This document shows, one piece after another, positions 30,666 to 51,297 of a DNA stretch of 52,068 nucleotides. A program made the translations under genes and the position numbers. The first letter of the stretch is position 1. Each line of letters begins with the position of its first letter. The stretch is taken from NCBI GenBank assembly GCA_947623775.1, contig CANQHL010000002.1:1-52068 (forward strand), read 5' to 3'. The notes under the pieces were generated by a model, which was not told the DNA's origin, searched no databases, and worked only from the letters and a program-made list of their open reading frames with translations. This stretch comes from an uncultured Clostridia bacterium (lineage in GTDB: Bacteria > Bacillota > Clostridia > Christensenellales > UBA1242).

Positions 30666-30671
30666 AAAAAT

Positions 30672-30700
30672 ATTATATCCTATTTTTAATTGAAATTCAA
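30672..30700 (-). promoter_or_regulatory. Promoter abutting the start codon (leaderless mRNA predicted)
   Basis: Minus-strand TTGAAT (30700-30695), 17 nt, TATAAT (30677-30672), 6 nt, ATGATG. No Shine-Dalgarno. Confidence 0.55.
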
Positions 30701-30825
30701 TAGAAATCACTCATTTCAGTGTAAAGATAAATTGCTTTGACAGAATAAAGGAGTGTGGCATAAAATTTTTTAAAGTTTTGCGGTCACGTAGTTTTTCTTC
30801 AGTCTGAAATGGCACTCGCCATTTT

Positions 30826-37250: not shown

Positions 37251-39224
37251 TCATAAAACCTGCTCATCCTTGTCTGATTGATTGTTCTGGACATATCCGA
37301 GTTCATTGTCTGGATAATTTTCAGGATGGTCAATTTTATCTAGATAAATTATTTTTTCATCATCAGTTGCCCACAATGAATCAAATGTTGCAAGCAATTC
37401 GGCACCAAGATACCTCTTGATAAACAATCTGACTTGTTTAACCTCGGTCATATCAGCCACTCTAAGTGAGAGCATTAAGGCATATTTTGCATTTGTGTTG
37501 GTTGGAATATCTGATGATGAAACATCATTGTTCATAATATCGTCAATTGTTATAAGTGGCATCTTTGCAAATGAAATGAATGATTTTGCATTTTCTTTTC
37601 CTATTTTATTTGAAATCAATGCTTCTCTTATAACTCCATTGTTATCATAGATGATGTTGGAAAGTTGTTCCCAGCCACGAGGGTCAATTGCAAATTCAGA
37701 CTTTTCTTTATCATATTTTGTATAGAAAACTTTATCTGAATAAGCCGCTACAAATGATGCTACAAGTGGGTGAATTCTTGGTTTTCCGTCAACAACTACA
37801 CTTCCCCATTCGAGCCAATCTTGTAAGTCAAGAGGTAGTTCAATGTGTGCGTTGAATCTTCTGAACAATGGCTCAGGCATAGGTGATGCAACGTCAGATT
37901 CTTTTGTGCTGTTTCCTGCGGCAATAACAACGCAGTTGTCAGGCAATTTGCCATAATTTCCATCTATGGAACGTTCAAGAACAATATGGTATACCAAACT
38001 TTGTTCATATTGACGAACATTGGTTATTTCATCAATAAACAAAACATGATTTCTTTCAGGGTCGTTTGCACAAACTTCCTTTATTCTTCTGTACCAAGTA
38101 GGCTCTATCCAAGAACTTTCCTTTGTTTGTTCGTTATAAGCGGTTTTACCGATAACCTCTTCTGGCAAAATGCCATCACGAAGTTGAATCATAACGCAAT
38201 CTGGGTCTATATCTTTTACACGTCTGCTTTTACCGACACCGCTTCTTCCGTGAAGCATAATGCTTAATTTGTTGTCAATATAAAATCTCAATTGTTCATC
38301 AATTGTCATAGGTCCGTCTTGAACGGAAACTTGAAATTTGTTTCTGTTTTTGGTTGGTGTTCTGCTGCTGTCAACTGAAATGTCAAAGAAGCCGTTTCCG
38401 GCATATTCACCATATCCATTCAAGAAATTTCTTGTTTGAGACAATGAATAATCATTTCCATTTACAGGCAATCCGGTAATTATACCTTCTGCAGGCGTAA
38501 TGTCTATTGGTGTTTTATCAGGAATGCTTGCATATCCTCTTGTGTTGAGGTGATCAAGCGTTTCATTATCGCAATTTATACGCCAAGTGATTGGCTCAAC
38601 TTCAAACCAATAACTCCTATCTTCAACCGCACTTCCGTCCGAAAATCTTGCTACATCGGTGGCTTTTGCTTTTATTTTAACAAATCGTCTTATTCTCCCG
38701 TCCACTTCACCCTCATATTCTTCACAATAAGCAGGGCCCTGTGCATCATCAAAAGTATAAGGATATTTCCTTCCTGTTTTGGTCAATTCGGAATTTGCCA
38801 ACATGGAATCCAACTTGAAAGTGTCGTGATAAATAGATTGTGGCCATACCCAATTTCTGTATATAAGTGTTCTCTCTTGTTTTGAAACTTGATATGGTCC
38901 AAATGGGTAAGCGTTTGAAAATGCAGATGCTTTTAACACAATATGTGGATGTGTGATGTTTGCTACACTTCCACTATTTCCCATTTTTTTCACATCTCGT
39001 ACATTTATTTCAGCAGTCTTTTTTCGGTCAACGGCCGCTCCACATGCAAGAGCAAAATCGGACACAACAATTTCTGGACTGAGGTTTCTTTTTGCAAGAG
39101 AGTCTGTGGTGTCAATAAACGCCTTATCTCTCATTTTTCCGTCACGTCCTTTGTTTTGCGAATTGTCAATTCCAGGTAAGAGTGCACTGTAAATATACTT
39201 ATTTATTTCAACATTATTGCTCAT
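37251..39224 (-). CDS. AAA+ ATPase (MoxR/AAA_5-like core) with ~300-aa N-terminal and ~150-aa C-terminal domains of unknown function
   Basis: Walker A LHGRSGVGKS, Walker B HVLFIDEITN, sensor-1 IAAGNS, PEPLFRRF (equivalent to the MoxR LDRF arginine region). N-terminal domain includes YWFEVEPITWRIN. Confidence 0.85.
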   Translation of the reverse strand: MSNNVEINKYIYSALLPGIDNSQNKGRDGKMRDKAFIDTTDSLAKRNLSPEIVVSDFALACGAAVDRKKTAEINVRDVKKMGNSGSVANITHPHIVLKASAFSNAYPFGPYQVSKQERTLIYRNWVWPQSIYHDTFKLDSMLANSELTKTGRKYPYTFDDAQGPAYCEEYEGEVDGRIRRFVKIKAKATDVARFSDGSAVEDRSYWFEVEPITWRINCDNETLDHLNTRGYASIPDKTPIDITPAEGIITGLPVNGNDYSLSQTRNFLNGYGEYAGNGFFDISVDSSRTPTKNRNKFQVSVQDGPMTIDEQLRFYIDNKLSIMLHGRSGVGKSRRVKDIDPDCVMIQLRDGILPEEVIGKTAYNEQTKESSWIEPTWYRRIKEVCANDPERNHVLFIDEITNVRQYEQSLVYHIVLERSIDGNYGKLPDNCVVIAAGNSTKESDVASPMPEPLFRRFNAHIELPLDLQDWLEWGSVVVDGKPRIHPLVASFVAAYSDKVFYTKYDKEKSEFAIDPRGWEQLSNIIYDNNGVIREALISNKIGKENAKSFISFAKMPLITIDDIMNNDVSSSDIPTNTNAKYALMLSLRVADMTEVKQVRLFIKRYLGAELLATFDSLWATDDEKIIYLDKIDHPENYPDNELGYVQNNQSDKDEQVL

Positions 39225-39362: not shown

Positions 39363-40034
39363 TCATTCAATATCCAAATAATCTCCGTCACCATAATCCT
39401 GTGGCAAATCTTCTTCGCCTTGCGATTTAACCGCCGAACCATCTTTGCCTTTGCTTAGCATATCAAACTTATAAACCAATGGTCTTTCATTTCTGAATTC
39501 CGGTGCAATCGAACACTCACTTTCAATTTTTTCGGCATTTGCAACATAAGGCTTTACTTTTTCAATACGCTTGTTGACAACATTTAATTTTTGGCATGTA
39601 TCCTCAAACAATTTTTCAAGTGCCTGCAACTGCTCCACTGAAATATCAACAAAAAATTTGTCTATTGCCAAATGCACCATTTCATCATTTGGCACGTCTT
39701 CCACGTTTTTATATTTTGTTTTTAAGTGGTCGTTTGCCTGCACAAGCATATCTCTGAGAAAGGGCAAAGACGCACCCTCGCTGTTTTTGCTTGAATTTAA
39801 TGTTTTTCTTTGCACAACAAATGGAAATTTAACAACTTGTGTTAACACTCTTTTTTCAGCCATCAACCTTGTAAGCAATGTTTTTGGATTGTTTTTCTCA
39901 AAACCCTTTACATTTTCATAAAAGTGTGCAGTGGTGATTTCTTCATAATCATGTCCATAAAGCGTTCTGAATTGTTCCGCTTCCTCTTTTGTTTTAAACA
40001 TTTTATCATGTCCTGAAACACCGTAAATTTTCAT
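39363..40034 (-). CDS. Soluble protein B3 (223 aa), C-terminal tail ...GDGDYLDIE
   Basis: GGAGG RBS. No signal peptide. N-terminus MKIYGVSGHDKMFKTKEEAEQFR resembles that of 41288-41893. Ends in the shared Y-[LI]-[DE]-[LI]-E tail (stop TGA). Confidence 0.8.
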   Translation of the reverse strand: MKIYGVSGHDKMFKTKEEAEQFRTLYGHDYEEITTAHFYENVKGFEKNNPKTLLTRLMAEKRVLTQVVKFPFVVQRKTLNSSKNSEGASLPFLRDMLVQANDHLKTKYKNVEDVPNDEMVHLAIDKFFVDISVEQLQALEKLFEDTCQKLNVVNKRIEKVKPYVANAEKIESECSIAPEFRNERPLVYKFDMLSKGKDGSAVKSQGEEDLPQDYGDGDYLDIE

Positions 40035-40047
40035 CTTTCCTCCGCTT

Positions 40048-40710
40048 TTACTCTAAGTCCAAATATCCAGCAAAGTCCTTTGCCTCCGGTGGCATGATGT
40101 CACTGTAATCAATATTATCCAAAACTTTATAATAATGATGAAATTCTCTTTCAACAATTTCATTTAAATCAAATGTGCTGTTTCTATCTATATAATATTT
40201 TTTTATGCTTGCAATTTTTTCATTTATACTGTTTATCATTTTGCAAGATTTCACATAGGCTTTTTTTAAATGTTCAACATCTTCTTTTGAAAATGCAACG
40301 CTGCGTCCATATATTCCCGGATAATAAATCAAGCCGTCCCATCTCAAACCTTTTTCGCTTTTTTCAATTTTGTCCATTGCGAAAATCAAAAATTCATGAA
40401 GTTCGTTAAGCATCGAAATTCTTATCGAGGTGTCAAGTTTGTCTCTTAAAACAGAACTTTCCACAAAATAACAACATTTGGTGTAAAGTTTTTGTTTTGC
40501 ATAAATTAATTGCCTTAAACTTTCTGCCGGTTTTGCCATGTAAACCTCTTTTGTGTCAGAAAAATCAGGGACGTCTACAACAACATCATCTTCCTTTCCA
40601 CTAATCAATTTCCACTCTTCCGCATCTTGATATTTTTCAAAAATCAATGGCATGAGGGATAAATTTCCGCTTTGTTCTCTTCTTGCAATTCCATATTTTG
40701 TGGTTTTCAT
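40048..40710 (-). CDS. Soluble protein B2 (220 aa), C-terminal tail ...FAGYLDLE
   Basis: AAGGAGA RBS, 13-nt gap to the next gene. Ends in the shared tail. Confidence 0.8.
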   Translation of the reverse strand: MKTTKYGIARREQSGNLSLMPLIFEKYQDAEEWKLISGKEDDVVVDVPDFSDTKEVYMAKPAESLRQLIYAKQKLYTKCCYFVESSVLRDKLDTSIRISMLNELHEFLIFAMDKIEKSEKGLRWDGLIYYPGIYGRSVAFSKEDVEHLKKAYVKSCKMINSINEKIASIKKYYIDRNSTFDLNEIVEREFHHYYKVLDNIDYSDIMPPEAKDFAGYLDLE

Positions 40711-40741
40711 TTTATCTCCTTAAATTATGGTGATAATATTT

Positions 40742-41275
40742 TTATGCTTTTTGTATCTCCTGTTCTTCCTTTGTCTTTTGGCGTGAACGAGTTTCTCTCC
40801 ATGCTTTAACATCATCAACACCTGATGCAATCATATAGTTGAGTCCTCTCATCTTATCACTTGCAAAGCCTAAATCCATTACAAGCAGCTCAAGTGCCGC
40901 AGCAACTGAACTTGCAACCATGCCGCATTCCAACGCTACATGGCTGTTTAAGAATTTTTCCATTGCCTCATATTCTTTTAGGTTGTTTCCTTTGGCATAA
41001 TCAACAACAAAATCATTTGAATTTAAATAATCATCGGCGTCTGAGACATCATTGTAAGATATTTCTCCTCTATCCGCTTTATCCTTTAATTCCCGAACAT
41101 AATTTTTTTGATTGTCGTATACCTGCTGAAATTGCGTTGTCTCTTTCACCTGGTCTAAAGCACTTAAATAGTCTTTATTTTGTTGTGAGTACACATATAT
41201 TGTCGTTCCCAGTGCTGCTGGAACAATTGATGCAAGTACAAATCCACCTGCAATTTTCAATAAACCTTTAAACAT
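40742..41275 (-). CDS. Two-TM membrane protein M4 (most divergent member of the M family)
   Basis: N-terminus MFKGLLKIAGGFVLASIVPAALGTTIYVY, central RGEISYNDV motif, second hydrophobic segment ECGMVASSVAAALELLVMDLGF, charged tail. Confidence 0.8.
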   Translation of the reverse strand: MFKGLLKIAGGFVLASIVPAALGTTIYVYSQQNKDYLSALDQVKETTQFQQVYDNQKNYVRELKDKADRGEISYNDVSDADDYLNSNDFVVDYAKGNNLKEYEAMEKFLNSHVALECGMVASSVAAALELLVMDLGFASDKMRGLNYMIASGVDDVKAWRETRSRQKTKEEQEIQKA

Positions 41276-41287
41276 TTTCTACTCCAA

Positions 41288-41893
41288 TTATTCATTCTCG
41301 CTTTCTTCGACTGGCTCTTCTTTAATTCCATAACGCTCGTTTAATTGTTCAATCTTTTTATCAACTTCTTCAAGAGTTGCTTTCAATTCGTTATATTGTC
41401 TGAATGTGATTGTAGCATAAGGAGATATGCTGCTTGGTTGTTTATAATAAATTTTATCAACAATCACATCTTGTTCGTTAGCCACATCGAGTTGTTTGTT
41501 TTTTATGTTCTCATCTGATTTTTTAATTATTTCTTGCAAAAATTCATAACATACCCTATTGCATTTTAAAACCATTTTTTCATCACCTCTGCGGTTGTTA
41601 TTGAAAACAATGGCATGTTTTAGAGGTATTGAGCCTTTCAACTTCTTTAATTCATTGATATATTTGCAATTTTTCTCATATGGATGGTCCTTGAGAAGTT
41701 GCTCAATTGTATCATAAACTTTAATATTATCAGATTCTACATCTGGAACAATTTTGTATCTGTTCTCAGGCAATGTCAAATATTTGACTCCGCAAAACCT
41801 TGTTTCATCATATGGAGCATATTCCTCTCTGAACTTTTGTGCAACTTTAAATGTGCTGAACGCATAATCTTTTCCTGTTATTTTAAAAATCAT
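41288..41893 (-). CDS. Soluble protein B1 (201 aa), acidic tail ...EEPVEESENE (no YLDLE)
   Basis: GGAG RBS. N-terminus MIFKITGKDYAFSTFKVAQKFREEY is similar to B3. 12-nt gap to M4. Confidence 0.8.
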   Translation of the reverse strand: MIFKITGKDYAFSTFKVAQKFREEYAPYDETRFCGVKYLTLPENRYKIVPDVESDNIKVYDTIEQLLKDHPYEKNCKYINELKKLKGSIPLKHAIVFNNNRRGDEKMVLKCNRVCYEFLQEIIKKSDENIKNKQLDVANEQDVIVDKIYYKQPSSISPYATITFRQYNELKATLEEVDKKIEQLNERYGIKEEPVEESENE

Positions 41894-41926
41894 ATTTCCC
41901 CCTTTTTCTCCAAAATGGATTTTTTA

Positions 41927-42511
41927 TTAATCTGCTATTTCTTCGGTGTATTCATCAATTGCTCTTTCGCGAGCATCTTGCTGTTTTTTCTCTCGTTTTT
42001 CTGCTGCCAAACGTTTTGCTTCGTCTAAATCCCATTCGCCACTGACTATCAAGTTATCACCGAAGCCGCTACGCCAATTAACCAAAGCGCACACTGCCGC
42101 AAGTGCAAAAGTTGAACCAACTCCAATGGCTGCTTTTACAAGTTGGTCGCGGGTTTTCAATATTCCCTGAAAATTTTCATCATCACTATACATTTGCCTT
42201 GCAATATCTTTTGACAAATTTGATTTGTGAGCTTCACTGTTTATTTCCTTGCTCTGGTCGAAGTACTCACCGTTTGACAATTCGCCCTCTTCAAAAAGCG
42301 TGTCAAGTTGCTGATTTTCCTCAAGTATTCTCTCTTGAACCGCATCTTGAACAAGCTTTGATTCGCGATATTCAACTTCTCTGTTGTCGTTTCCAGCAAT
42401 ACCGAGCAAAACACCTATAAATGCCACTCCGGTGGCAAATGCGGCAGGCACTATACCATGCCCGACAACCAATTTTACTCCGCCTTTAACTTTTTTTAAT
42501 AACGCTTGCAT
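41927..42511 (-). CDS. Two-TM membrane protein M3
   Basis: MQALLKKVKGGVKLVVGHGIVPAAFATGVAFIGVLLGIAG, EEGELSNGEYF motif, second TM AAIGVGSTFALAAVCALV, tail ...IDEYTEEIAD. Confidence 0.8.
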   Translation of the reverse strand: MQALLKKVKGGVKLVVGHGIVPAAFATGVAFIGVLLGIAGNDNREVEYRESKLVQDAVQERILEENQQLDTLFEEGELSNGEYFDQSKEINSEAHKSNLSKDIARQMYSDDENFQGILKTRDQLVKAAIGVGSTFALAAVCALVNWRSGFGDNLIVSGEWDLDEAKRLAAEKREKKQQDARERAIDEYTEEIAD

Positions 42512-42533
42512 ATGCTCTCCTTCAGATAATATA

Positions 42534-42562
42534 ATTATATATTAAAAACCAGTGTTTGTCAA
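42534..42562 (-). promoter_or_regulatory. Internal promoter of the locus (drives M3-B1-M4-B2-B3)
   Basis: Minus-strand TTGACA (42562-42557), 17 nt, TATAAT (42539-42534). GGAG and ATG 42511 lie downstream. Confidence 0.7.
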
Positions 42563-42586
42563 TATTGCATAAAAATAAAATTTAGT

Positions 42587-42609
42587 AAAAAAAAACACCA
42601 TAATGGTGT
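42587..42609 (-). terminator. Intrinsic terminator after 42677-43228 (triloop type)
   Basis: ACACCA-tta-TGGTGT on the minus strand followed by T8-9. Same architecture (6-bp stem, T[AT]A triloop, A/T runs) as the hairpins in the intergenic repeat family. Confidence 0.6.
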
Positions 42610-42676
42610 TTTTGCTTGAAGAAATCGTGAACATAGTGACAAAATCAAAAAATAATTTGTACTCACTGATTTTTTA

Positions 42677-43228
42677 TTATTCAATCTCAGGTTGATTTTC
42701 TTGTTGTGCTTCTTGTGCGTTAAGCCATGAAGCTATCAGGCTGCTTTCCCGGTCACCATCTGTAACATATGAAAGACCATATTCGAAAGTTGATGGACTT
42801 ACATCAATTAAATTTGTGAACACTGACAAAGGAAATTCAATATTATTTGGCTTTACTATAACTTTCGCAGGTCGGCCATTTTCTTGAGAAACAAATTTTT
42901 TATTTGCCTCTTTATACTTTACGCACCCTAACATTTTCAATGCTGCGGACAATTGGCGTTGTTCTTTCTCGGTGAAATTAAGATCTTCACACTTCAAAAC
43001 CACAGTAAGAACTTTTTTGCAAAAATGCACTGCTTCTTCCATGGTTGTTTGGCTTGATTTTAAATTTACAGGTACAATTTCAGTCAGTGCGAGCAATGCT
43101 TCCGGAACATGGTGATAAACAAATGCCTCATGTGCGGCTCTTTCTTGACGGAGTCTTTTGATTGTTGCTTGTCCCTCAGGACTTTGCTCCCATTCCCTTC
43201 GCTTTTTATCATAAATATTTTCTTTCAT
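42677..43228 (-). CDS. Singleton soluble protein U1 (183 aa), tail ...QQENQPEIE
   Basis: GAGGTGA RBS. Has its own consensus promoter and terminator. No recognisable motif. Confidence 0.8.
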   Translation of the reverse strand: MKENIYDKKRREWEQSPEGQATIKRLRQERAAHEAFVYHHVPEALLALTEIVPVNLKSSQTTMEEAVHFCKKVLTVVLKCEDLNFTEKEQRQLSAALKMLGCVKYKEANKKFVSQENGRPAKVIVKPNNIEFPLSVFTNLIDVSPSTFEYGLSYVTDGDRESSLIASWLNAQEAQQENQPEIE

Positions 43229-43250
43229 ATTTCACCTCTTACTTATAAAT

Positions 43251-43279
43251 ATTATAATGTTATATTTATAAATTGTCAA
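43251..43279 (-). promoter_or_regulatory. Promoter of 42677-43228
   Basis: Minus-strand TTGACA (43279-43274), 17 nt, TATAAT (43256-43251). Confidence 0.7.
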
Positions 43280-43406
43280 TAAACAACTGAATTTATTTAT
43301 AATATTTCCTGCCAAATAAAATGGCGTGGAAATATTTGAAAAATTTGTAAGATTAAAAACCCAAATTTAGGCTGATGATTTTGCTATGTACATTTCTCGT
43401 AATTAT

Positions 43407-43970
43407 TTATCTCTCTATTTCCTCAGAATACTCTTCGTCTTGTTTTTTCTTGTCCTCTTCTTCTTTTAGCAGATATGAGGTGTCCATTGCGTCAAAAGCG
43501 ATGTCGGCAAATTTTTCTACGTAGCCCGTTAAAAAACCTAAGCCAAGATATGCCAAAGAACCAAAGCCAAGTGCAGATGTCACGATATGCCCCACCATAA
43601 GTTTATCATCTTTTTTTAAGAGAGCATTATATTCTTCATCTTCGGCAAAAACCTCGTCTGCTGTTTTTTTCACAAGTTCATCTCTGTCTTGATTTTCTAG
43701 GTCTTTTTTCATTCTTAAATACTCGCCATCCGTGATTTCGCCATTTGCAAGTTGGTCGTCAAGTTCCGTCATTTCATCGGAAAGTTTATCATCGACAATA
43801 TTTTGAACCACTTCATAATTATAATATTCACCTAAATCGCGTTGAGTGGTTGCGTGTGCACCCAACGTTGCAAAGCCGGCAATTACCCCAACCGGAGTAA
43901 GGGCCATCGGTAAAGTAACAGTTACGCCAAGAACAAGTCCGCCTTCAATCATTTTTATAATTGATTTCAT
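43407..43970 (-). CDS. Two-TM membrane protein M2
   Basis: MKSIIKMIEGGLVLGVTVTLPMALTPVGVIAGFATLGA, ANGEITDGEYL motif, second TM VTSALGFGSLAYLGLGFLTG, tail ...DEEYSEEIER. Confidence 0.8.
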   Translation of the reverse strand: MKSIIKMIEGGLVLGVTVTLPMALTPVGVIAGFATLGAHATTQRDLGEYYNYEVVQNIVDDKLSDEMTELDDQLANGEITDGEYLRMKKDLENQDRDELVKKTADEVFAEDEEYNALLKKDDKLMVGHIVTSALGFGSLAYLGLGFLTGYVEKFADIAFDAMDTSYLLKEEEDKKKQDEEYSEEIER

Positions 43971-43987
43971 TGTAACTCCTTTTAATG

Positions 43988-44491
43988 TTAAACTCTTATC
44001 ATATTTTCCGGCCGTATTTTGCCATCAATCAGCCGTTTTGGAGAAATTATTTTTTGTGCCAATGGAAGATAAGGTTGCATTATAATCACTCTCCCCTCAT
44101 TTTCCGTTTGTGAGGCGGTTTCTGTAAAATATTCTATATTTGCATTTACAAAAACTTTATCCCATACATCATTTATTTGATAAATTTGTTTAAGTTTTTT
44201 TATAAGTGCATCTTTCCTTGGCTCTATATCTGCTGAAACTTCCAGAGTGCCGACCTCATCAATCAAATCTCTGAGTTCTTCATGATTTAATTCATCAGCA
44301 AACAAATACACTTCCCTTTCTTTAAAATCATTTTCTGCCACTTTCTCTTCGCAAAGGATTTTTATTGTTGATTTCGGTATGTTTTCCAATTTGTAAATGT
44401 CGTCACTATCGGCAAAAATATATTTTTCTTTTTTCTCTTTCCCTTGAAAATAGATTATATTAAATTTGTAAACTTTGTCAAGTGTTAACAT
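43988..44491 (-). CDS. Family-A paralog A9 (167 aa), the only member lacking the YLDLE tail
   Basis: VYKFNIIYF, FADSDDIYKLENIPKST and ISPKRLIDGKIRP align with the other A members. Ends ...PENMIRV. Confidence 0.8.
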   Translation of the reverse strand: MLTLDKVYKFNIIYFQGKEKKEKYIFADSDDIYKLENIPKSTIKILCEEKVAENDFKEREVYLFADELNHEELRDLIDEVGTLEVSADIEPRKDALIKKLKQIYQINDVWDKVFVNANIEYFTETASQTENEGRVIIMQPYLPLAQKIISPKRLIDGKIRPENMIRV

Positions 44492-44514
44492 ATTTTTCTC
44501 CTGTTTTTTACTTG

Positions 44515-45132
44515 TTATTTAACCACTTCTTCAGAATAAGAATCCATCTTTTTTTGATACACTTTAATTTGATGCTCGGTCTGTTTTTGCTTTAACCTTT
44601 TTTCTTTTTCTTCCGCTTCCTCTTCTGCCAACTCTTGCCCTTGACGGCATGCTTTTACACCTGCATTATAAAGCGCATAACCAAGCCCTATTCCAAATGA
44701 TACCATTGTAAAAACTGTTAAGCCGCCACCAATTGTCATCAATGAAATTGCAGCCTTTTTTAATTGCTCGTCTTGTTTTAACATTCCGTTATACTCCTCA
44801 TCAGAGGCGAAAATTTCCGCTACGGTTTTTTGTTCAATTGCGTGCTTATGTAAATTATCATCAAGATTATGTTTTAATTTCTTATATTCGCTTTCTGTGA
44901 TTTCTCCATCGGCAAATTGTTTTTCAAGTTCTTCATTTTCTATTGTAAGAGTGTCTTGCACAATCTCCTGAACCTGCTCATTTTCATAAAATTGTGTATA
45001 TCTATCATCTCTTAATAGATAAGCGCCACCTGTGCCAAGCCCGGCACCTAATCCCATGCAACCCGCTATCATAACACCATACGATGCGGCAAACGCAAGT
45101 CCGCCTTTTATCCTTTTTAAAATTGATTTCAT
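44515..45132 (-). CDS. Two-TM membrane protein M1
   Basis: MKSILKRIKGGLAFAASYGVMIAGCMGLGAGLGTGGAYLL, ADGEITESEYK motif, second TM LMTIGGGLTVFTMVSFGIGLGYAL, tail ...MDSYSEEVVK. Confidence 0.8.
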   Translation of the reverse strand: MKSILKRIKGGLAFAASYGVMIAGCMGLGAGLGTGGAYLLRDDRYTQFYENEQVQEIVQDTLTIENEELEKQFADGEITESEYKKLKHNLDDNLHKHAIEQKTVAEIFASDEEYNGMLKQDEQLKKAAISLMTIGGGLTVFTMVSFGIGLGYALYNAGVKACRQGQELAEEEAEEKEKRLKQKQTEHQIKVYQKKMDSYSEEVVK

Positions 45133-45153
45133 TTTTGCTCCTATTCTTCAAAC

Positions 45154-45672
45154 TTATTCCAAATCTAGATATGCCCCATCATAATTGTTTGCTTTTTCTT
45201 CGGGCGGACAAATTTTTCCATCAATCAATTGTTGCGGCGAAATAACGGTCTGTGCAGAAGAGAAAAATGGCTGTATAATATTTATTCTGCCCGTGTAATC
45301 GGTGAAATAGTCAATGTTTTTATTTACAAAAACCTTGCACCATTTATCGTCGGCATGATATATACGCCTAAGATTTTGTTCTAATGCTTCTCTTTGAGGT
45401 TCTTTGTCTTTTGAAACGGTCAGGCTGCTTACTTCATTAATTAAATCTCTCAACCCCATTTTTGTCAACTCGTCGCCAACTAAATATGCCTTTACTTCCT
45501 CAAACTTTTCCCCATCTTGAGAACTTTTATCGCAAATTATCAGCGTTGTAGTTTTAGGAATACCATTCAACTGAAAAACATCGTCGCTATCGGAAAATAA
45601 AAATTTAGACTTCTTTTCCTCGCCCTCGTAATACACCACCTTAAATCGATAAATACTTCCAAATGTTGCCAT
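45154..45672 (-). CDS. Family-A paralog A8 (172 aa), tail ...YDGAYLDLE
   Basis: AAGGAGG RBS. IYRFKVVYY, FSDSDDVFQLNGIPKTT, ISPQQLIDGKICP. Confidence 0.8.
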   Translation of the reverse strand: MATFGSIYRFKVVYYEGEEKKSKFLFSDSDDVFQLNGIPKTTTLIICDKSSQDGEKFEEVKAYLVGDELTKMGLRDLINEVSSLTVSKDKEPQREALEQNLRRIYHADDKWCKVFVNKNIDYFTDYTGRINIIQPFFSSAQTVISPQQLIDGKICPPEEKANNYDGAYLDLE

Positions 45673-45714
45673 TTTTCCTCCTTATTAAGTTGATTTTTCT
45701 AACATTTTTTATTT

Positions 45715-46254
45715 CTATTCCAAATCTAAATATGGTCGGCTTTCATCTTCTTTCTCAAATGGTCGACTTTCGTCTGCTTTCTCAAGCGGGAATATTTTGC
45801 CGCATGCAATTTGTTTCGGAAAAATAATGGTCTCTTTGCCAAGCCATAACGGTGACAAAATTATTCTTCTAACAACCGGATCGCAGTAGTCCACACTTCT
45901 ATTTATATAAATTTTATTGCTTTCATCGGGATCACTGCAATATTTTTCAAGCACTTTTATCATTCTCTCCTTAAAATCATATAATTTATATGATACTTTC
46001 AATTGTTGCAACGTTTCAATTTCTTTTCTTGCCTCTTCTTTTGTCAATTCTTCGCCAACCATATAAGTGCTTTGCAATTCCCATTCTTTATCATGCCCGG
46101 CAGTTGAGCGACAATAGATTTTTGTTGTTGTTTCTGGCACGCCCTCCAACTTGTAAATATCATCACTATCGGAAAATACAATCTTTTTTCTTTCCGCCTT
46201 TCTTCCCGCATAATAATAAATCTCAAATTCGTAAATTTTATCGTTTACTATCAT
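45715..46254 (-). CDS. Family-A paralog A7 (179 aa), tail ...DESRPFEKEDESRPYLDLE
   Basis: AGGAG RBS. IYEFEIYYY, FSDSDDIYKLEGVPETT. 27-bp tandem duplication in the tail-coding region. Confidence 0.8.
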   Translation of the reverse strand: MIVNDKIYEFEIYYYAGRKAERKKIVFSDSDDIYKLEGVPETTTKIYCRSTAGHDKEWELQSTYMVGEELTKEEARKEIETLQQLKVSYKLYDFKERMIKVLEKYCSDPDESNKIYINRSVDYCDPVVRRIILSPLWLGKETIIFPKQIACGKIFPLEKADESRPFEKEDESRPYLDLE

Positions 46255-46268
46255 TTTTACTCCTATTT

Positions 46269-46808
46269 TTATTCCAAATCAAGATATAAGTCACCCTCAT
46301 TGTTTTTCTTTTCTTCATTTTCGCCATTAATTTGTTTGATTGGATAAATCTTTCCGTTTTTTATTTGTTTTGGAGAAATGGGAATGAATTCTCTTGTCCA
46401 CCAAAACCAAGAAGATACAATAATCCTATTTCTGATAGAATTTGTATCAAGGTCTATATTATTATTTAAATAAATTGTATCAGAAGTTTCATCTTTGCAG
46501 TAGGCTTTAAGGGCTTTTAAAGTAAGATTTCTTGCATCGGAAATAGAGAGTTCGTTTAATTTTTTAATTTCCGCCGCTGCGTCTTCCTGGCTCATCTCAT
46601 CGCCTATTAAATATTCGGCTTCATTTTCCCAATCTTTATCATCTTTTAAGTTTTTATAGTAGCAATAAATGTGGTGTGTAGTCTTTGGCACACCTTCTAA
46701 ACCATATATATCATTACTATCGGAATAAACAAATTTCTTTTTGCCATCTACAGTCGTGCCGTCCCAATAGAAAATCTCAAATCTATAAACTTTGTCTTTT
46801 AAAACCAT
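46269..46808 (-). CDS. Family-A paralog A6 (179 aa), tail ...EGDLYLDLE
   Basis: AGGAG RBS. VYRFEIFYW, YSDSNDIYGLEGVPKTT, ISPKQIKNGKIYP. Confidence 0.8.
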   Translation of the reverse strand: MVLKDKVYRFEIFYWDGTTVDGKKKFVYSDSNDIYGLEGVPKTTHHIYCYYKNLKDDKDWENEAEYLIGDEMSQEDAAAEIKKLNELSISDARNLTLKALKAYCKDETSDTIYLNNNIDLDTNSIRNRIIVSSWFWWTREFIPISPKQIKNGKIYPIKQINGENEEKKNNEGDLYLDLE

Positions 46809-46822
46809 TTTTGCTCCTATTT

Positions 46823-47389
46823 TTATTCCAAATCGAGATATAAGTCGCCCACATCAATTTTCTTTACTTCTTTTTTAGCGTTAATCTGCTCAGTTGAATA
46901 AATCTTGCCGTTTACAATCTGTGATGTAGAAATTATTTTGCGATCAGATGCTGGTGAAATTATTTTTATTCTCTCACGAATGGAATCACCATTGGTCAAT
47001 TTAATATTTTTATTTAAATAAATTTTATCTCTATTCTCTTCTTTTGTGTTATCCTGCACGCTGTTAAGAAATTTTTGAAGTCCATCTAAAGCATCTGTTT
47101 TGTAGCTCTCCCCGTAGAATTCCACGTAAAAATCTTTTAGTTTTTTTATTTCATTTTTTGCTTCTTCGGCTGTTATTCTATCTCCTATATCATATTGACC
47201 AACGACTTTCCAGTGTTCATACTCTTGATTAAGGTCGCAACAGCGAACATGAATGGTACAGGTAGTCTGTGGCAAATCTTGCAAAGAGTATATGTTGTCC
47301 TCGTCCGAAAACATACGCAGGCAATCCATTTTTCCTTTTTCGTCAAAATACCAAATTTCAAACATATATCCTTCGTCTTTAATTAACAT
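46823..47389 (-). CDS. Family-A paralog A5 (188 aa), tail ...VGDLYLDLE
   Basis: AGGAGA RBS. GYMFEIWYF, FSDEDNIYSLQDLPQTT, STSQIVNGKIY. Confidence 0.8.
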   Translation of the reverse strand: MLIKDEGYMFEIWYFDEKGKMDCLRMFSDEDNIYSLQDLPQTTCTIHVRCCDLNQEYEHWKVVGQYDIGDRITAEEAKNEIKKLKDFYVEFYGESYKTDALDGLQKFLNSVQDNTKEENRDKIYLNKNIKLTNGDSIRERIKIISPASDRKIISTSQIVNGKIYSTEQINAKKEVKKIDVGDLYLDLE

Positions 47390-47401
47390 TTTGTCTCCTT
47401 T

Positions 47402-47965
47402 TTATTCCAAATCAATGTATGCTCTATCGTCTTCAACGTCTCCTCTTTTTATTTGCCCAATTGGATAAATTTTGCCATTTACAAGTTGTGATGGAGATAT
47501 AATTTTGTTGTTCGAAGATGGCGGAACGACTCTTACTCTCGCCTTAATGGCAGCACTGCAGTCCAAATCAATATTTTTGTTTAAATAAATTTTATCTGCA
47601 CCAATATCTCTTGTATTATTTTTCTCACCTTTGCAAAATGCTTTAAGGCTATCAAGGATTGCTTCCTTATTGATTCTTGCACCAATATCGTCCTCGTCAA
47701 CACAAAATTCTTCTATTGCCTTTGTTTCTTTTTCCGCTTCTTCAAGCGTAATTTTATCCCCTATATCATATTCACCAGCAACACTCCAGTAAACCTGATG
47801 TTCTTTAAGATTGAGATAGTACAAACCGATATAAAAGGTTGTCTGTGGCACATCTTCCAATGCAAATATTTCTGCTTTGTCCAAGTACATCGTTTTTTTT
47901 GCTTTGTTTTTTGTCTTGTCTATATACCAAACCTCAAATTTATATACTTCGTCTTTGATCAGCAT
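47402..47965 (-). CDS. Family-A paralog A4 (187 aa), tail ...DDRAYIDLE
   Basis: AAGGAGA RBS. VYKFEVWYI, IFALEDVPQTT, ISPSQLVNGKIYP. Confidence 0.8.
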   Translation of the reverse strand: MLIKDEVYKFEVWYIDKTKNKAKKTMYLDKAEIFALEDVPQTTFYIGLYYLNLKEHQVYWSVAGEYDIGDKITLEEAEKETKAIEEFCVDEDDIGARINKEAILDSLKAFCKGEKNNTRDIGADKIYLNKNIDLDCSAAIKARVRVVPPSSNNKIISPSQLVNGKIYPIGQIKRGDVEDDRAYIDLE

Positions 47966-47983
47966 TCTTTCTCCTTATTTTTG

Positions 47984-48553
47984 TTATTCTAAATCAAGAT
48001 ATAAGTCACCCGCATCAATTTTCTTTACTTCATTTTTTGAATTAATGTGCTCAGTTGGCACAATCCTGCCGTTTACAATTTGTGATGGTGAAATGGTTTT
48101 GAAGTCGCTATCTGACGGAATAATTGATATTCTCGCATTAATGGCAGCCACACAATCCAAGTCAATATTTTTGTTTATAAAAATATTTTCTACATCCGCA
48201 TCTCTTGTGTTATTTTTTTCATTTCTGCAAAAGGCTTTAAGGCTATATAAGGCTCTTATCTTGTAACTATATTCCGTTTCGCCCTCATCAACTTCAAGTT
48301 TTTCTAAAGCCTCCAATTCCTTTTTTGCTTCATCAAGTGTGATTTTATCCCCTATTCTATAATAACCTATCGTATGCCAGAGTGTCGGATTTTCCTTTAT
48401 ATCCTTATGGTTTGCCAAAATACAATAGGCAGTTTGTGGAACACTTTCTAGCGTGTTTATATCATTACTGTCCGAATATAAAATCATTTTTTCTGCTTTT
48501 TCATGGTTAATATACCAAATCTCAAATTCATAGAGATCGTCTTTAATTAACAT
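47984..48553 (-). CDS. Family-A paralog A3 (189 aa), tail ...AGDLYLDLE
   Basis: AAGGAGGG RBS. LYEFEIWYI, YSDSNDINTLESVPQTA, ISPSQIVNGRIVP. Confidence 0.8.
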   Translation of the reverse strand: MLIKDDLYEFEIWYINHEKAEKMILYSDSNDINTLESVPQTAYCILANHKDIKENPTLWHTIGYYRIGDKITLDEAKKELEALEKLEVDEGETEYSYKIRALYSLKAFCRNEKNNTRDADVENIFINKNIDLDCVAAINARISIIPSDSDFKTISPSQIVNGRIVPTEHINSKNEVKKIDAGDLYLDLE

Positions 48554-48565
48554 TTTCCCTCCTTT

Positions 48566-49114
48566 TTATTCCAAGTCAAGGTACGGTCTATCGTCCTCAA
48601 TTTCTCCACTTTCTATTTTCTCAATTGGATAAATTTTTCCATTTACAAGTTGTTTTGGAGATATATATTGAAAATACATTCTTATACTTACATGCGGACT
48701 TACAGGAAATCTTCCTGAAATGGAATCTTTATACTCAATGTTTCTATTTATTAAAATTTCTTCAGTAGATTTCTTTTTGCAATATGATTTAAGAGCAGCA
48801 ATTGTTTTTTCCTTGTCTTTGCGAAATTTCTCCGGCACGTCAAGTTTGCTTAAAATTTCTAATTCCTCTCTTGCTTCCTGTTTTGTAAGTTTTTCAGCCA
48901 CTATATAGTCACCTTGTGCGCCTCTCCATGTTTGACCATCAGATTCCAGGACATAGCCCCAAATTTTGGTCACCTTCTGCGGAATACCGTCAAGTGCATA
49001 TATATCATTGTTGTCCGAATAGATAATTTTGCTTTTTTTGTTTTCCTCATTAGGACCGGCATCGCAATCAATGTATTCAATTTCAAATTTGTAAATCTTG
49101 TCTTTAAAAACCAT
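48566..49114 (-). CDS. Family-A paralog A2 (182 aa), tail ...DDRPYLDLE
   Basis: GAGGAG RBS. IYKFEIEYI, YSDNNDIYALDGIPQKV, ISPKQLVNGKIYP. Confidence 0.8.
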   Translation of the reverse strand: MVFKDKIYKFEIEYIDCDAGPNEENKKSKIIYSDNNDIYALDGIPQKVTKIWGYVLESDGQTWRGAQGDYIVAEKLTKQEAREELEILSKLDVPEKFRKDKEKTIAALKSYCKKKSTEEILINRNIEYKDSISGRFPVSPHVSIRMYFQYISPKQLVNGKIYPIEKIESGEIEDDRPYLDLE

Positions 49115-49134
49115 TTTTGCTCCTCGAAAATTTT

Positions 49135-49662
49135 TTATTCTAATTCGATATAAGAATTGTCGCCATTTAGTTTACTGCTGTTTATTTGTTCAAGTGAGTG
49201 AATTTTCCCATTTACAATTTGCTTTGGAGATATATAAATGCAGGTTTTTGACCACCAGGAAGATATTATTATTCTATCCATAATAGATTCTTCATTAAGG
49301 GGCACATTTTTATTTATATAAATTTTTGGAGTTTGCTTTTTATTGCAAAATGATTGAAGAGCGGCTAAAGTTTTCTCTTTGACATCGCTAAATCCCGACG
49401 TAATTTCGATTTTGCTTATTTTTTCAATCTCCTCTTTGGCTTCTTCGGTTGTAATCTCCTCACCAATCAAATAGAAATCTTCCAATTTCCAATTAGTGAT
49501 TTCATTAAGGTTTCTATAAAAGCACTTGATTATAACGCATGATTTAGGCACATCTTCTAAGGCATAAATATCGTTGCTATCCGAATACATTTTCTTTTCG
49601 GGTTTTGCCATTTCTGTATTTGAATAAAGTTCAAATTTGTAGATTTTGTCTTTAATTATCAT
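49135..49662 (-). CDS. Family-A paralog A1 (175 aa), tail ...GDNSYIELE
   Basis: First ATG (49662) lies 21 nt downstream of a consensus -10. The ORF-track GTG at 49695 overlaps the promoter. IYKFELY, YSDSNDIYALEDVPKSC, ISPKQIVNGKIH. Confidence 0.8.
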   Translation of the reverse strand: MIIKDKIYKFELYSNTEMAKPEKKMYSDSNDIYALEDVPKSCVIIKCFYRNLNEITNWKLEDFYLIGEEITTEEAKEEIEKISKIEITSGFSDVKEKTLAALQSFCNKKQTPKIYINKNVPLNEESIMDRIIISSWWSKTCIYISPKQIVNGKIHSLEQINSSKLNGDNSYIELE

Positions 49663-49683
49663 AATATCCCCAAATATATAATT

Positions 49684-49712
49684 ATTATATATCACAAATT
49701 ATATTTTGTCAA
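49684..49712 (-). promoter_or_regulatory. Promoter of the family-A array (A1 through M2, 11 genes)
   Basis: Minus-strand TTGACA (49712-49707), 17 nt, TATAAT (49689-49684). Confidence 0.7.
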
Positions 49713-49725
49713 GGCAGGACATTCT

Positions 49726-50320
49726 CGGCAAACCAGATGTTTGACGTTTAGCGAGTTATGTGATAATTATTGTTTTTATTTTCCCTCTCTTTTAAGTTTC
49801 ACCAAACCAGATGTTTGACGTTTAGCGAATGAGGTGATATTTAAAAAAATTAAATTTCATTGTCTTTCCAGCAGATTTTCTAACCAAATGTTTGACGGCA
49901 AACTTAGTTTGCATCATTAGCGAATTAAATCATATTAAAAAAATCAAATTTCATTATCGCTCAAATATCGTTAAACGAAGTAAAAAAAGGTGCATAATGC
50001 ACCCAAACCAAATGTTTGACGGCAAACCAGATGTTTGACGTCTAGCGAATGAAATGATATTTAAAAATTTAAATTTCATTGTCTTTCAAGCAAATGTTCT
50101 AACCAGATGTTTGAAGGCAAACTTAGTTTGCATCATTAGCGAATTAAATCATATTAAAAAAATTTAAATTTCATTATCGCTCAAACACCATTAAACGAAG
50201 TAAAAAAAAAGGTGCATAATGCACCCAAACCAAATGTTTGACGGCAAACCAGATGTTTGGCGTTTGGCGAATGATGTGATAATTAATGTTTTTATTTCCC
50301 CTCTCTTTTAAGTTTCAATA
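49726..50320. repeat. Array of structured intergenic repeats (about 220-bp super-unit x2 plus flanking partial units)
   Basis: Eight copies of AAACC(A/G)(A/G)ATGTTTG(A/G)(C/A)(G) (49736, 49811, 49888, 50012, 50031, 50107, 50234, 50253). Hairpin GCAAAC-TTA-GTTTGC (49898-49912, 50117-50131). CATCATTAGCGAAT. AT-rich AAATTTCATT(G/A)TC segment. Hairpin GGTGCA-TAA-TGCACC preceded by A7-9 (49989-50003, 50211-50225), which reads as hairpin + T-run on the minus strand. Confidence 0.85.
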
Positions 50321-50393
50321 GATGTGATATTAAAAAATAAACACTCGCTTTTCGATAGTGGCAAACAAAAATAAAGAGGGTTATAACACCCCC

Positions 50394-51251
50394 TTATTCT
50401 AAATCTAAATATAAATCTCCCTCCGCTTTTTGTCCAACCTTTCCGGTGGCTATATATTCACTTAATGTCTTGGATAACGGACGTTCGGCAAGTTTGGTCA
50501 AAATTTCAATTCCTATTTGTTTGTTTTTATCTTTTTTTCCGAAGAAAACCATATTTTTCCCAAGTGCAAACTCTGTTTGTGATGTAGGATTTGACTTGTA
50601 AAGTCTTGCAAGTTCTTTTTGTGTTTGAACTACTTCGCGTTTGAACTCTCTCCTGTCCCTCTCTACAAAATTGGACGCATGAATCGGAATCCCTTCGAGC
50701 AATTCAAGATATTTCTCCATCGCATAAGGGTTGTTCATCTGTTTTGCTTGTTCGTGACATGCGATTATTGCCTCAATCTGGTACTTAACAATCTGGTTAT
50801 TCCTTATCTTTTCAAACGTCTTTTCACTTCGTGTCTGAATTTCATCCAAGTCCTCCGTAAGGCTATTAAATCTTGCCTCCTCAGTATAATGCAACTTGGA
50901 AATTTTTAAACTTATAGCGTCAATTTCATCCAAATCATCATTATATTGTTTAACTAAATCTCTAAGTTCTTTTCCGCAAGGATCGGTTGCATAAAGTTTA
51001 TAGGCATTAGCGAGAATATGGTTGAAATTTCTGCTATATGCTTTTTCATCTGTTTTCATATCAATTCTAGCATTTGTTGGTTTTCCCGCCCTGCCCGTAA
51101 GCGTATAATATGCAGTAATGGCATTGACCTGTCCAAGTTCAGCCAATTTTTCCATCTCTTTCTCAACCTGAGTAGCATCTTTGGATATAAATTGTCTTGA
51201 CCACAGCGTAATAAAATCATCATCCAATTCGTTAAAGTTATTTTCTAACAT
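50394..51251 (-). CDS. Singleton helical protein H (285 aa), tail ...AEGDLYLDLE
   Basis: AGGAGA RBS, own consensus promoter. No signal peptide or TM. No similarity by eye to the A, B or M families, yet it carries the identical GDLYLDLE C-terminus. Confidence 0.8.
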   Translation of the reverse strand: MLENNFNELDDDFITLWSRQFISKDATQVEKEMEKLAELGQVNAITAYYTLTGRAGKPTNARIDMKTDEKAYSRNFNHILANAYKLYATDPCGKELRDLVKQYNDDLDEIDAISLKISKLHYTEEARFNSLTEDLDEIQTRSEKTFEKIRNNQIVKYQIEAIIACHEQAKQMNNPYAMEKYLELLEGIPIHASNFVERDRREFKREVVQTQKELARLYKSNPTSQTEFALGKNMVFFGKKDKNKQIGIEILTKLAERPLSKTLSEYIATGKVGQKAEGDLYLDLE

Positions 51252-51268: not shown

Positions 51269-51297
51269 ATTATACCCCGCCAACGAATAAATGTCAA
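51269..51297 (-). promoter_or_regulatory. Promoter of 50394-51251
   Basis: Minus-strand TTGACA (51297-51292), 17 nt, TATAAT (51274-51269). ATG lies 17 nt downstream. Confidence 0.7.

Follow-up and report, generated by a model that had tools for sequence, protein, structure and literature searches.

A 52,068-bp stretch of chromosome from an uncultured Clostridia bacterium (contig CANQHL010000002.1), referred to throughout as the window, encodes 11 proteins of dissimilar families that end in the same short peptide, Y-[LI]-[DE]-[LI]-E-COOH. This C-terminal tail is proposed, with a probability of about 0.45, to be a lineage-restricted docking peptide for a common reader, the best candidate for which is a MoxR-type AAA+ ATPase encoded beside the tail-bearing genes. 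That a single common reader exists is quite probable; its identification as the ATPase, the best single candidate, is doubtful.

A six-frame scan of the window with the pattern Y[LI][DE][LI]E gives 11 matches, all on the minus strand and all within positions 39363-51251. Each of the 11 is directly followed by a stop codon and internal matches are absent from every frame, in agreement with the initial annotation of this DNA, which had placed the motif on the last five residues of 11 proteins (H, A1-A8, B2 and B3). From amino-acid composition, 7e-4 tail termini would be expected among 44 plausible genes, and 0.25 internal matches. The shuffling of C-termini proposed in that annotation was applied to the last 30 residues of the 18 proteins of the locus and yields 0.0008 matches per shuffle, with a maximum of one. 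A chance origin of the tail is ruled out by these values.

The tail is constant in residues and variable in codons. Within the window the Tyr is encoded by TAT or TAC, position -4 by TTA, CTT, CTC, CTA, TTG, ATC or ATT, the Asp or Glu at -3 by GAT, GAC or GAA, position -2 by TTA, TTG or ATT, and the last Glu by GAA or GAG. The stop codon is TAA in nine genes, TAG in A7 and TGA in B3, so that the codon variability first described for the tail stands but the accompanying list of stops (TAA/TGA) was incomplete. An octapeptide, GDLYLDLE, is common to H, A3, A5 and A6, and its encoding in H differs. Copied DNA junctions are ruled out as the origin of the tail by the synonymous codon variation and the unlike flanks, which also dispose of the possibility that all of the 3' ends derive from a single DNA segment.

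The tail is retained in four related rabbit-gut Clostridia assemblies, and 45 distinct tail-bearing proteins have been counted. To these 45 endings one from an M membrane protein was added, giving 46 distinct endings in which the Tyr at -5 was imposed by the search pattern. Position -4 is Ile or Leu in 41 of the 46, position -3 is Asp or Glu in 36 (Gly, Ala, Leu, Met or Thr in the rest), position -2 is Leu in 44 and Ile in two, and the last residue is Glu in 42, Asp in 2 and Ser in 2. Preferences extend upstream, with Ser or Pro at -6 (26/46), Lys at -7 (24/46), Asp at -8 (27/46) and Tyr or Phe at -10 (19/46), and the consensus of the collected tails is [YF]-x-D-K-[SP]-Y-[IL]-x-L-E-COOH. A further variant with Asn at -3, YINLE, is seen in the relative L069. 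Over the 46 endings Leu -2 uses six codons of both codon families (CTT 15, TTG 13, TTA 12, and CTA/CTC/CTG 4), Tyr -5 is TAT in 36 and TAC in 10, and all three stop codons are in use. Leu codons from both families and the use of all three stops show that the tail is under selection as a peptide and not as DNA. The same reading had been offered at first sight of the locus, and it is borne out by the synonymous variation, by the tail of the operon-terminal genes H and B3 (it is also on a lone gene, in L015), and by its retention in orthologues.

Orthologues retain the tail although their linkers diverge in both sequence and length. The H orthologues of L001 and L022, for example, end in KPYIDLE and KSYLDLE behind different linkers. 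The conserved block of the family A alignment ends ...SPSQIVNGKIYP and is followed by approximately 10-20 unconserved residues before the near-invariant Y, L and E. In an AlphaFold2 model of A3 made from this alignment, residues 1-171 form an α/β domain with a mean predicted local distance difference test score (pLDDT) of 85.9. The linker and tail (residues 172-189) have pLDDT values below 50, compared with 79-97 in the domain, and the motif stands 13 residues beyond the last structured element. Family C, found only in the relatives, has linkers of approximately 10-55 residues ahead of the same tail. No signal peptide or membrane segment is found in the window tail carriers, for which the maximum Kyte-Doolittle hydropathy over 19 residues (KD19) is ≤ 1.04; the A and B proteins contain 2-4 cysteines. 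The tail was originally suggested to be a docking, sorting or degron peptide. It has the build of a docking or sorting signal, being the very end of the protein and preceded by a variable linker for which the A3 model predicts disorder; the degron is considered below.

The positions of the locus genes, the ATPase and the perfect promoters are collected in the following table.

Table. Genes and promoters of the tail locus and the adjacent ATPase gene (window coordinates)
Feature	Position	Strand	Description	C-terminus (tail codons)
Promoter	51269..51297	-	perfect TTGACA-17-TATAAT; upstream of H	
H	50394..51251	-	285-aa helical protein; own promoter and terminator	GDLYLDLE (50397-50411)
Promoter	49684..49712	-	perfect consensus; upstream of A1-A8 operon	
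A1	49135..49662	-		NSYIELE (49138-49152)
A2	48566..49114	-		RPYLDLE (48569-48583)
A3	47984..48553	-		GDLYLDLE (47987-48001)
A4	47402..47965	-		RAYIDLE (47405-47419)
A5	46823..47389	-		GDLYLDLE (46826-46840)
A6	46269..46808	-		GDLYLDLE (46272-46286)
A7	45715..46254	-		RPYLDLE (45718-45732)
A8	45154..45672	-		GAYLDLE (45157-45171)
M1	44515..45132	-	two-pass membrane protein, SHOCT-like loop	SYSEEVVK
A9	43988..44491	-	A-family paralogue ending right after the globular domain	no linker or tail
M2	43407..43970	-	two-pass membrane protein	EYSEEIER
Promoter	43251..43279	-	perfect consensus; upstream of U1	
U1	42677..43228	-	orphan 183-aa protein; own perfect promoter	QPEIE
Promoter	42534..42562	-	perfect consensus; upstream of M3-B1-M4-B2-B3	
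M3	41927..42511	-	two-pass membrane protein	EYTEEIAD
B1	41288..41893	-	distant B-like protein	no tail in 3/3 species examined
M4	40742..41275	-	divergent two-pass membrane protein	no motif
B2	40048..40710	-		AGYLDLE (40051-40065)
B3	39363..40034	-	last gene of the operon	GDYLDIE (39366-39380)
ATPase	37251..39224	-	MoxR-type AAA+, 657 aa; candidate reader or processor of tails	

The start of A1 is most likely the ATG at 49662 (MIIKDK...) rather than the GTG at 49695, because the perfect -10 box ends at 49684. Inspection of the open reading frames (ORFs) bears out the set of tail-less proteins listed earlier (A9, B1, U1 and M1-M4), as well as the endings given for M1-M3, for U1 and for an HExxH protein elsewhere in the window (DENEIE). 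The loss of the tail from A9 is judged to be recent, because the L069 protein at the same position retains it (ASYINLE).

The families that carry the tail are otherwise unrelated. BLASTP gives no cross-family matches between H, A and B/C, hhalign assigns A versus B a probability of 1.6%, and the part of A that it aligns with C consists of the 13 tail columns only; the early impression that H, A and B have nothing else in common is therefore upheld. A C-terminal helical module ahead of the linker may be common to B and C (79%), which are treated as one possible superfamily. On this basis the carriers make up four or more families that show no detectable homology to one another: A, B/C, H and small proteins of 75-143 residues. 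None of the carrier families has a significant match in Pfam, PHROGs, NCBIfam, PADLOC or the PDB sequence profiles, H has no Pfam or PDB sequence match, and Foldseek finds no match for the A fold in the PDB or BFVD. A look-up of the window H protein itself gave no entry. A literature search on the tail pentapeptides returned chemical names only. No known family, fold or system matches the tail set. H was also considered as a reader of the Sel1/TPR type and rejected, as there is no Pfam support and its comparison with a Sel1 protein of a related metagenome-assembled genome (MAG) is not significant.

Interleaved with the A and B genes are those of the M proteins, each of which has two hydrophobic segments. 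An exhaustive HMMER search finds 60 relatives of M among 1.84 billion representatives. Most of the full-length relatives end in [DE]-[DE]-Y-x-E-E-[IVL] plus 0-3 residues, and a C-terminal EY-x-EE-[IV] is conserved in approximately 30 distant representatives. The M proteins had been put forward as a receptor for the tail, but this ending across the whole family makes them poor candidates; because the family has a Tyr-acidic-aliphatic C-terminal hallmark of its own, they look like membrane-anchored fellow carriers, not readers. Tandem arrays of 3-5 M paralogues are also found in L068 (8179-11380) and L065 (1487-3162), and their C-terminal dialects are lineage-specific: EYKEE[IV]L in the arrays of rabbit-gut contigs and an LPDIEDTYYRD type in the distant lineage of L068, where five tandem paralogues lie directly downstream of NifS/NifU genes.

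The candidate reader matches AAA_5 (PF07728) with 24.1 bits against a Pfam cutoff of 22, and phrog_1297 at 1e-42. In its AlphaFold2 model (mean pLDDT 82.7) the AAA+ module has NorQ and CbbQ as best PDB matches (Foldseek, E approximately 1e-8), and residues 1-300 form a β-rich N-terminal domain. Orthologues with 61-64% identity are encoded in L012 and L063, and in three genomes (window, L012 and L063) the ATPase gene lies within 6 kb downstream of a tail array. Homologues at ≤ 47% identity have no tailed neighbours, and one that is 47% identical has a VWA-type partner (DUF2201 neighbour).

MoxR ATPases normally work with a VWA partner. The window ATPase has the MoxR AAA+ fold of the NorQ-NorD, CbbQ-CbbO and RavA-ViaA systems. 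It differs from them in having no VWA gene and in the extra β-rich N-terminal domain of approximately 300 residues, and its clients would be recognized via the tail and not via the metal-ion-dependent adhesion site (MIDAS) of a VWA protein.

Several observations weigh against a reader role for the ATPase. In the window, L012 and L063 alike, no VWA gene adjoins it. The ATPase has its own promoter (an 11/12 match with a TG extension), and in two genomes it is separated from the array by unrelated genes, an M60 peptidase in one and an ABC transporter and regulator in the other. Within the Lapin-002 MAG the H/A/M block and the family C array are on separate contigs. No ATPase and none of families A, B, C and H is found near the L068 M array, which speaks against a lineage-specific reader. 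This suggests that the reader of the tail may be older than families A, B, C and H, and since M arrays with other dialects occur away from all of these genes it could be an older housekeeping protein. Identification of the N-terminal domain as DUF6273, a C-type-lectin-like ligand-binding fold (PMC10743442), was dropped; it is sub-threshold in some homologues and gives no match in the window protein. Finally, the linkage to tails may be plain synteny among close relatives; the association of ATPase and tail is suggestive, and inseparable from synteny by descent.

If the tail is a docking peptide, its key features would be the Tyr at -5, the aliphatic residue at -4, the Leu at -2 and, at the end, an acidic residue with its free carboxylate. 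A flexible linker, acidic or polar and varying in length, would join it to globular domains whose folds are unrelated. The tail would grant unrelated, lineage-specific soluble proteins access to one reader, and through their sister motif, EY-x-EE-[IV]-COOH, the M proteins would recruit the same reader or complex to the membrane. Were the ATPase this reader, tail binding would fall to its β-rich N-terminal domain, and remodelling, assembly or hand-over of the clients to the AAA+ ring.

A likeness to such an arrangement is found in a eukaryotic system. The EEVD-COOH tails of Hsp70 and Hsp90 are read by the TPR 'carboxylate clamp' domains of Hop and CHIP. They too stand at the extreme C-terminus after a flexible linker, end in an acidic residue whose carboxylate would be read, have hydrophobic residues at -2 and -5 (I/M-E-E-V-D versus Y-L-D-L-E) and bring unrelated clients to one reader; the M endings EEIE and EEVL are closer still than the carrier tail. 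This is a resemblance of pattern only, and no TPR or Sel1 Pfam match is found among the window proteins scanned. The C-terminal tip of SSB (DDDIPF), the FtsZ C-terminal peptide and the tails of the archaeal/eukaryotic ribosomal stalk share the order of globular domain, disordered variable linker and acidic-hydrophobic tip. However, in these systems one family with a hydrophobic last residue meets many partners, whereas here many families have one tip. Identity with the FtsZ C-terminal peptide or the β-clamp motif (QLxLF) was dropped, as the key hydrophobic C-terminal residues are absent from the tail. The initial annotation also saw a loose resemblance to the clathrin box, which has no bearing on the bacterial cytoplasm.

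The main rival explanation is that the tail is a Sec-independent export signal, which would send proteins without signal peptides either through an FtsK/SpoIIIE machine of type VII kind that recognizes Y-x-x-x-D/E or along a new route built from the M proteins. The YxxxD/E pattern fits 44 of the 46 collected endings (Y at -5, D/E at -1), and the resemblance to type VII secretion system (T7SS) signals had been pointed out from the start. The spacing is that of the YxxxD/E of ESX substrates, the EsxB/CFP-10 tail read by EccC and the FxxxD of Lap1, and in both cases the signal is flexible and C-terminal, would be read by an ATPase and is common to several substrate families. T7SS ATPases read flexible C-terminal signals, and in T7SSb such a signal is known in the FxxxD of Lap1 (PMC13492133). 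Fast-diverging paralogues arrayed in tandem and driven by strong consensus promoters are a typical feature of secreted or surface proteins, M genes are interleaved within the carrier operons, and the neighbours include surface M60 peptidases and ABC exporters. The array contig of a related MAG also has a gene for an FtsK/SpoIIIE ATPase with four WXG100-like genes after it. This cluster, the only T7SS-like one found, however stands approximately 30 kb away from the array, and the small proteins that it encodes end differently and have no tail. In T7SS substrates (WXG100, PE/PPE, LXG, Esp) the motif comes right after the second helix of a helix-turn-helix or four-helix bundle, whereas the A domain is α/β and neither a helical hairpin nor a four-helix bundle, and in the A3 model a disordered linker keeps the motif apart from the fold and away from any helix tip. 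The window ORFs that were scanned include no FtsK/SpoIIIE gene (PF01580), and no EssC/EccC, EsxA or other T7SS core gene. The similar tail of the M proteins fits a client better than a channel, and apart from the 2-4 cysteines of the A and B proteins there is no other secretion hallmark. The type VII resemblance is therefore formal, in the spacing, and fails on fold, motif context and linkage; export by either route is rather unlikely.

The T7SS-like cluster of the relative (L008, 14667-21321; Lapin-030__bin96, the L001 contig) is made up of an FtsK/SpoIIIE ATPase of 955 aa that has no membrane segments, four helical WXG100-like proteins of 91-97 aa, two of which have an internal YxxxD/E, a 133-aa protein and two zinc-ribbon Sel1-repeat proteins.

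A related and unlikely reading is that the tail is the address label of a hitherto unknown, lineage-restricted sorting pathway of uncultured gut Clostridia, in which the MoxR-type ATPase and/or the M proteins would deliver proteins without signal peptides to or across the membrane. The C-terminal sorting signals LPXTG (sortase) and PEP-CTERM (exosortase) were found by genome-wide motif searches and phylogenetic profiling (PMC1569441). Like the tail, they are short C-terminal signatures on unrelated proteins in restricted genomes, with carriers that are often clustered or paralogous. In those signals, however, the motif is combined with a transmembrane helix and a basic tail, and the proteins that bear them start with a signal peptide; the window carriers have neither. 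The window carriers thus lack a signal of the sortase/exosortase type: none has a KD 19-residue window above 1.04, and the motif is the very end of the protein.

It is also conceivable, if improbable, that no separate reader or motor exists and that the tail plugs soluble proteins onto the M proteins or each other to form a membrane-associated, hetero-oligomeric coat or scaffold. M genes are co-transcribed with A and B as well as interleaved with them, M carries a SHOCT-like oligomerization motif, H, A and M are kept together in four genomes, and the perfect consensus promoters suggest high expression of the kind seen for structural proteins. Yet no M gene is found within 6-20 kb of the B/C arrays in L012 and L063, M has a related tail of its own, and M arrays stand alone in other lineages.

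Two further explanations are very improbable. The tail might act at termination, as a nascent peptide or mRNA element in ribosome pausing or translational coupling; it always adjoins the stop codon, its conservation reaches approximately 10 residues upstream, the length of the exit-tunnel segment, and most carriers have the ribosome-binding site of the next gene within approximately 10 nt. However, the tail is also on operon-terminal H and B3, which are followed by terminators or long gaps, and on the solitary L015 gene, synonymous sites vary freely with all three stops in use, and the M sister motif lies 0-3 residues from the end. The other explanation is a degron for a housekeeping AAA+ protease. 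Proteases of this class recognize tags at the C-terminus (ssrA-ClpXP), and an exposed C-terminus on a linker disordered in the A3 model would suit such a role. The degrons known from C-termini, however, finish in non-polar residues (LAA, for example), whereas the tail ends in Leu-Glu preceded by D/E, with acidic flanks unlike an ssrA-type end, and products meant for destruction are hard to reconcile with perfect consensus promoters on 11 genes.

Shared C-terminal signatures have exposed machinery before, as with sortase and LPXTG, exosortase and PEP-CTERM, the C-terminal domains of type IX secretion and the T7SS signals. The present signature is unusually clean, with five residues that are always terminal on no fewer than 45 proteins from four or more unrelated orphan families. 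It places several orphan families in a common pathway, and a tail peptide of approximately eight residues provides a single handle with which to fish out the reader in uncultured gut bacteria, organisms in which lineage-specific genes cannot otherwise be read. Furthermore, the tail lets one ask whether a MoxR-type ATPase recognizes tails in place of a VWA adaptor. If it exists, the sorting pathway would give Gram-positive bacteria a new targeting route, independent of Sec and used by dozens of proteins from unrelated families.

The relatives that carry the tail include Lapin-030__bin96 (GCA_947624415.1) and Lapin-002__bin27 (both 'uncultured Clostridia bacterium'), which appear to be rabbit-gut MAGs because 'Lapin' is the French for rabbit. 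In Lapin-030 (L001/L024) H, three A and two M proteins and tail-less B1-like proteins are followed by B-/C-type proteins ending in YLMLD, YILLE, YIDLE, YITLE and YIDLD, and then by an M60 peptidase and an ABC transporter. Elsewhere in this genome L015 encodes a solitary 143-aa Cys-rich protein ending in DKDYIDLE. Lapin-002 has H, three A and four M proteins (L022), and its contig L021 matches the family C genes of L012. The latter (metagenome assembly ERZ27249657) contains 14 consecutive genes that all end in Y-[LIMT]-x-L-E; after this array come a 73-aa gene, an M60 peptidase and an ATPase orthologue (61% identity). In L063, from a further species, tails of the form DKPY[IL]xL[ES] are followed by the ABC transporter, the regulator and an ATPase orthologue (64% identity). 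L069 represents a further relative.

Conservation of the tail in orthologous loci had been named at the outset as a check, and these assemblies supply it. Family A forms 7 clusters among 5.8 billion proteins, every one ending in a variant of the tail, and a B profile search gives 4 matches only. The DNA pattern D-K-x-Y-[IL]-D-L-E-TAA was searched in 185,579 GTDB species representatives, the JGI metagenomes and IMG/VR. Clusters are found among the species representatives in the two Lapin rabbit-gut Clostridia MAGs only, no clustered matches occur in the JGI metagenomes and IMG/VR, and the remaining matches are isolated and mostly away from ORF ends. As the pattern covers one tail dialect only, this distribution is a lower bound. 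So far, these searches place the tail in a narrow rabbit-gut lineage only.

An exception is the ending DDKYYIDLE, which fits the eight-residue pattern of the tail and is present on a 144-aa SMI1/KNR4-like protein of Priestia flexa (L028, 5135-7333; also L033, L036, L042 and L045). Its gene in Priestia/Bacillus is directly 3' of an LXG-domain toxin gene, the context of a T7SS toxin-immunity pair. This ending is judged a probable coincidence, as the motif follows a helix with no apparent linker.

Directly upstream of the B/C tail array a divergent operon is conserved in L012 (2798-5432) and L001 (5897-8537), encoding a Metallophos protein, a protein of approximately 415 aa ending in EEEDEL and a double-zinc-ribbon protein of 79 aa; the window lacks this operon. 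The M60 (enhancin-like) peptidase gene just 3' of the tail array in L024 (4252-6810) and L012 (15799-18420) encodes a surface-anchored protein with a signal peptide and a C-terminal membrane anchor, and in L012 the ATPase gene is next. The window has no M60 peptidase gene.

The window itself is a piece of low-GC (approximately 35%) bacterial chromosome with housekeeping genes that include an EngB-type GTPase, an RlmD-like methyltransferase, nucleotidyl transferases, GNATs and two tRNAs. A phage or mobile element is ruled out by these genes together with the lack of phage structural matches in the window. Transcription units behind a perfect TTGACA-17-TATAAT are H, A1-A8, U1 and M3-B1-M4-B2-B3, and the A1-A8 unit probably continues through M1, A9 and M2. 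Because they sit behind perfect consensus promoters, the tail operons would be expected to be strongly expressed. There are seven such 12/12 promoters in the 52 kb, five of them within the tail locus, where one (44481-44454) sits inside the start of the A9 coding sequence; those away from the locus are at 34119-34091 and 21531-21503.

Between H and A1 (49729-50312) a unit of approximately 220 bp is repeated approximately 2.5 times. The repeat contains six CAAACCARATGTTTG palindromes, where 0.1 are expected, and two identical hairpin-plus-T-run terminators (GGGTGCATTATGCACC). The palindrome closest to A1 is approximately 17 bp upstream of the -35 box, and one is also found upstream of the L012 B/C array (5494-5508). 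The repeat resembles an array of operators, or a series of small-RNA units, for control of the A operon.

Elsewhere, paralogous orphan proteins, some with HExxH, are encoded at 22379-24154 and 29580-30710 of the window and at 3849-7238 of L015. The two L015 copies contain HEINH and HELNH, respectively, and adjoin the solitary tail-bearing Cys-rich protein. An N-terminal motif, ...CFV..YGEKYR, is common to a 591-aa ORF of the window and the two L015 copies. The window HExxH protein with the DENEIE ending is that at 29580-30710, and one L015 copy ends in NDEFLE. A 3350-aa ORF on the minus strand (3098-13150) has a lipoprotein-like N-terminus (…LLYAC) and no Pfam or PHROG match.

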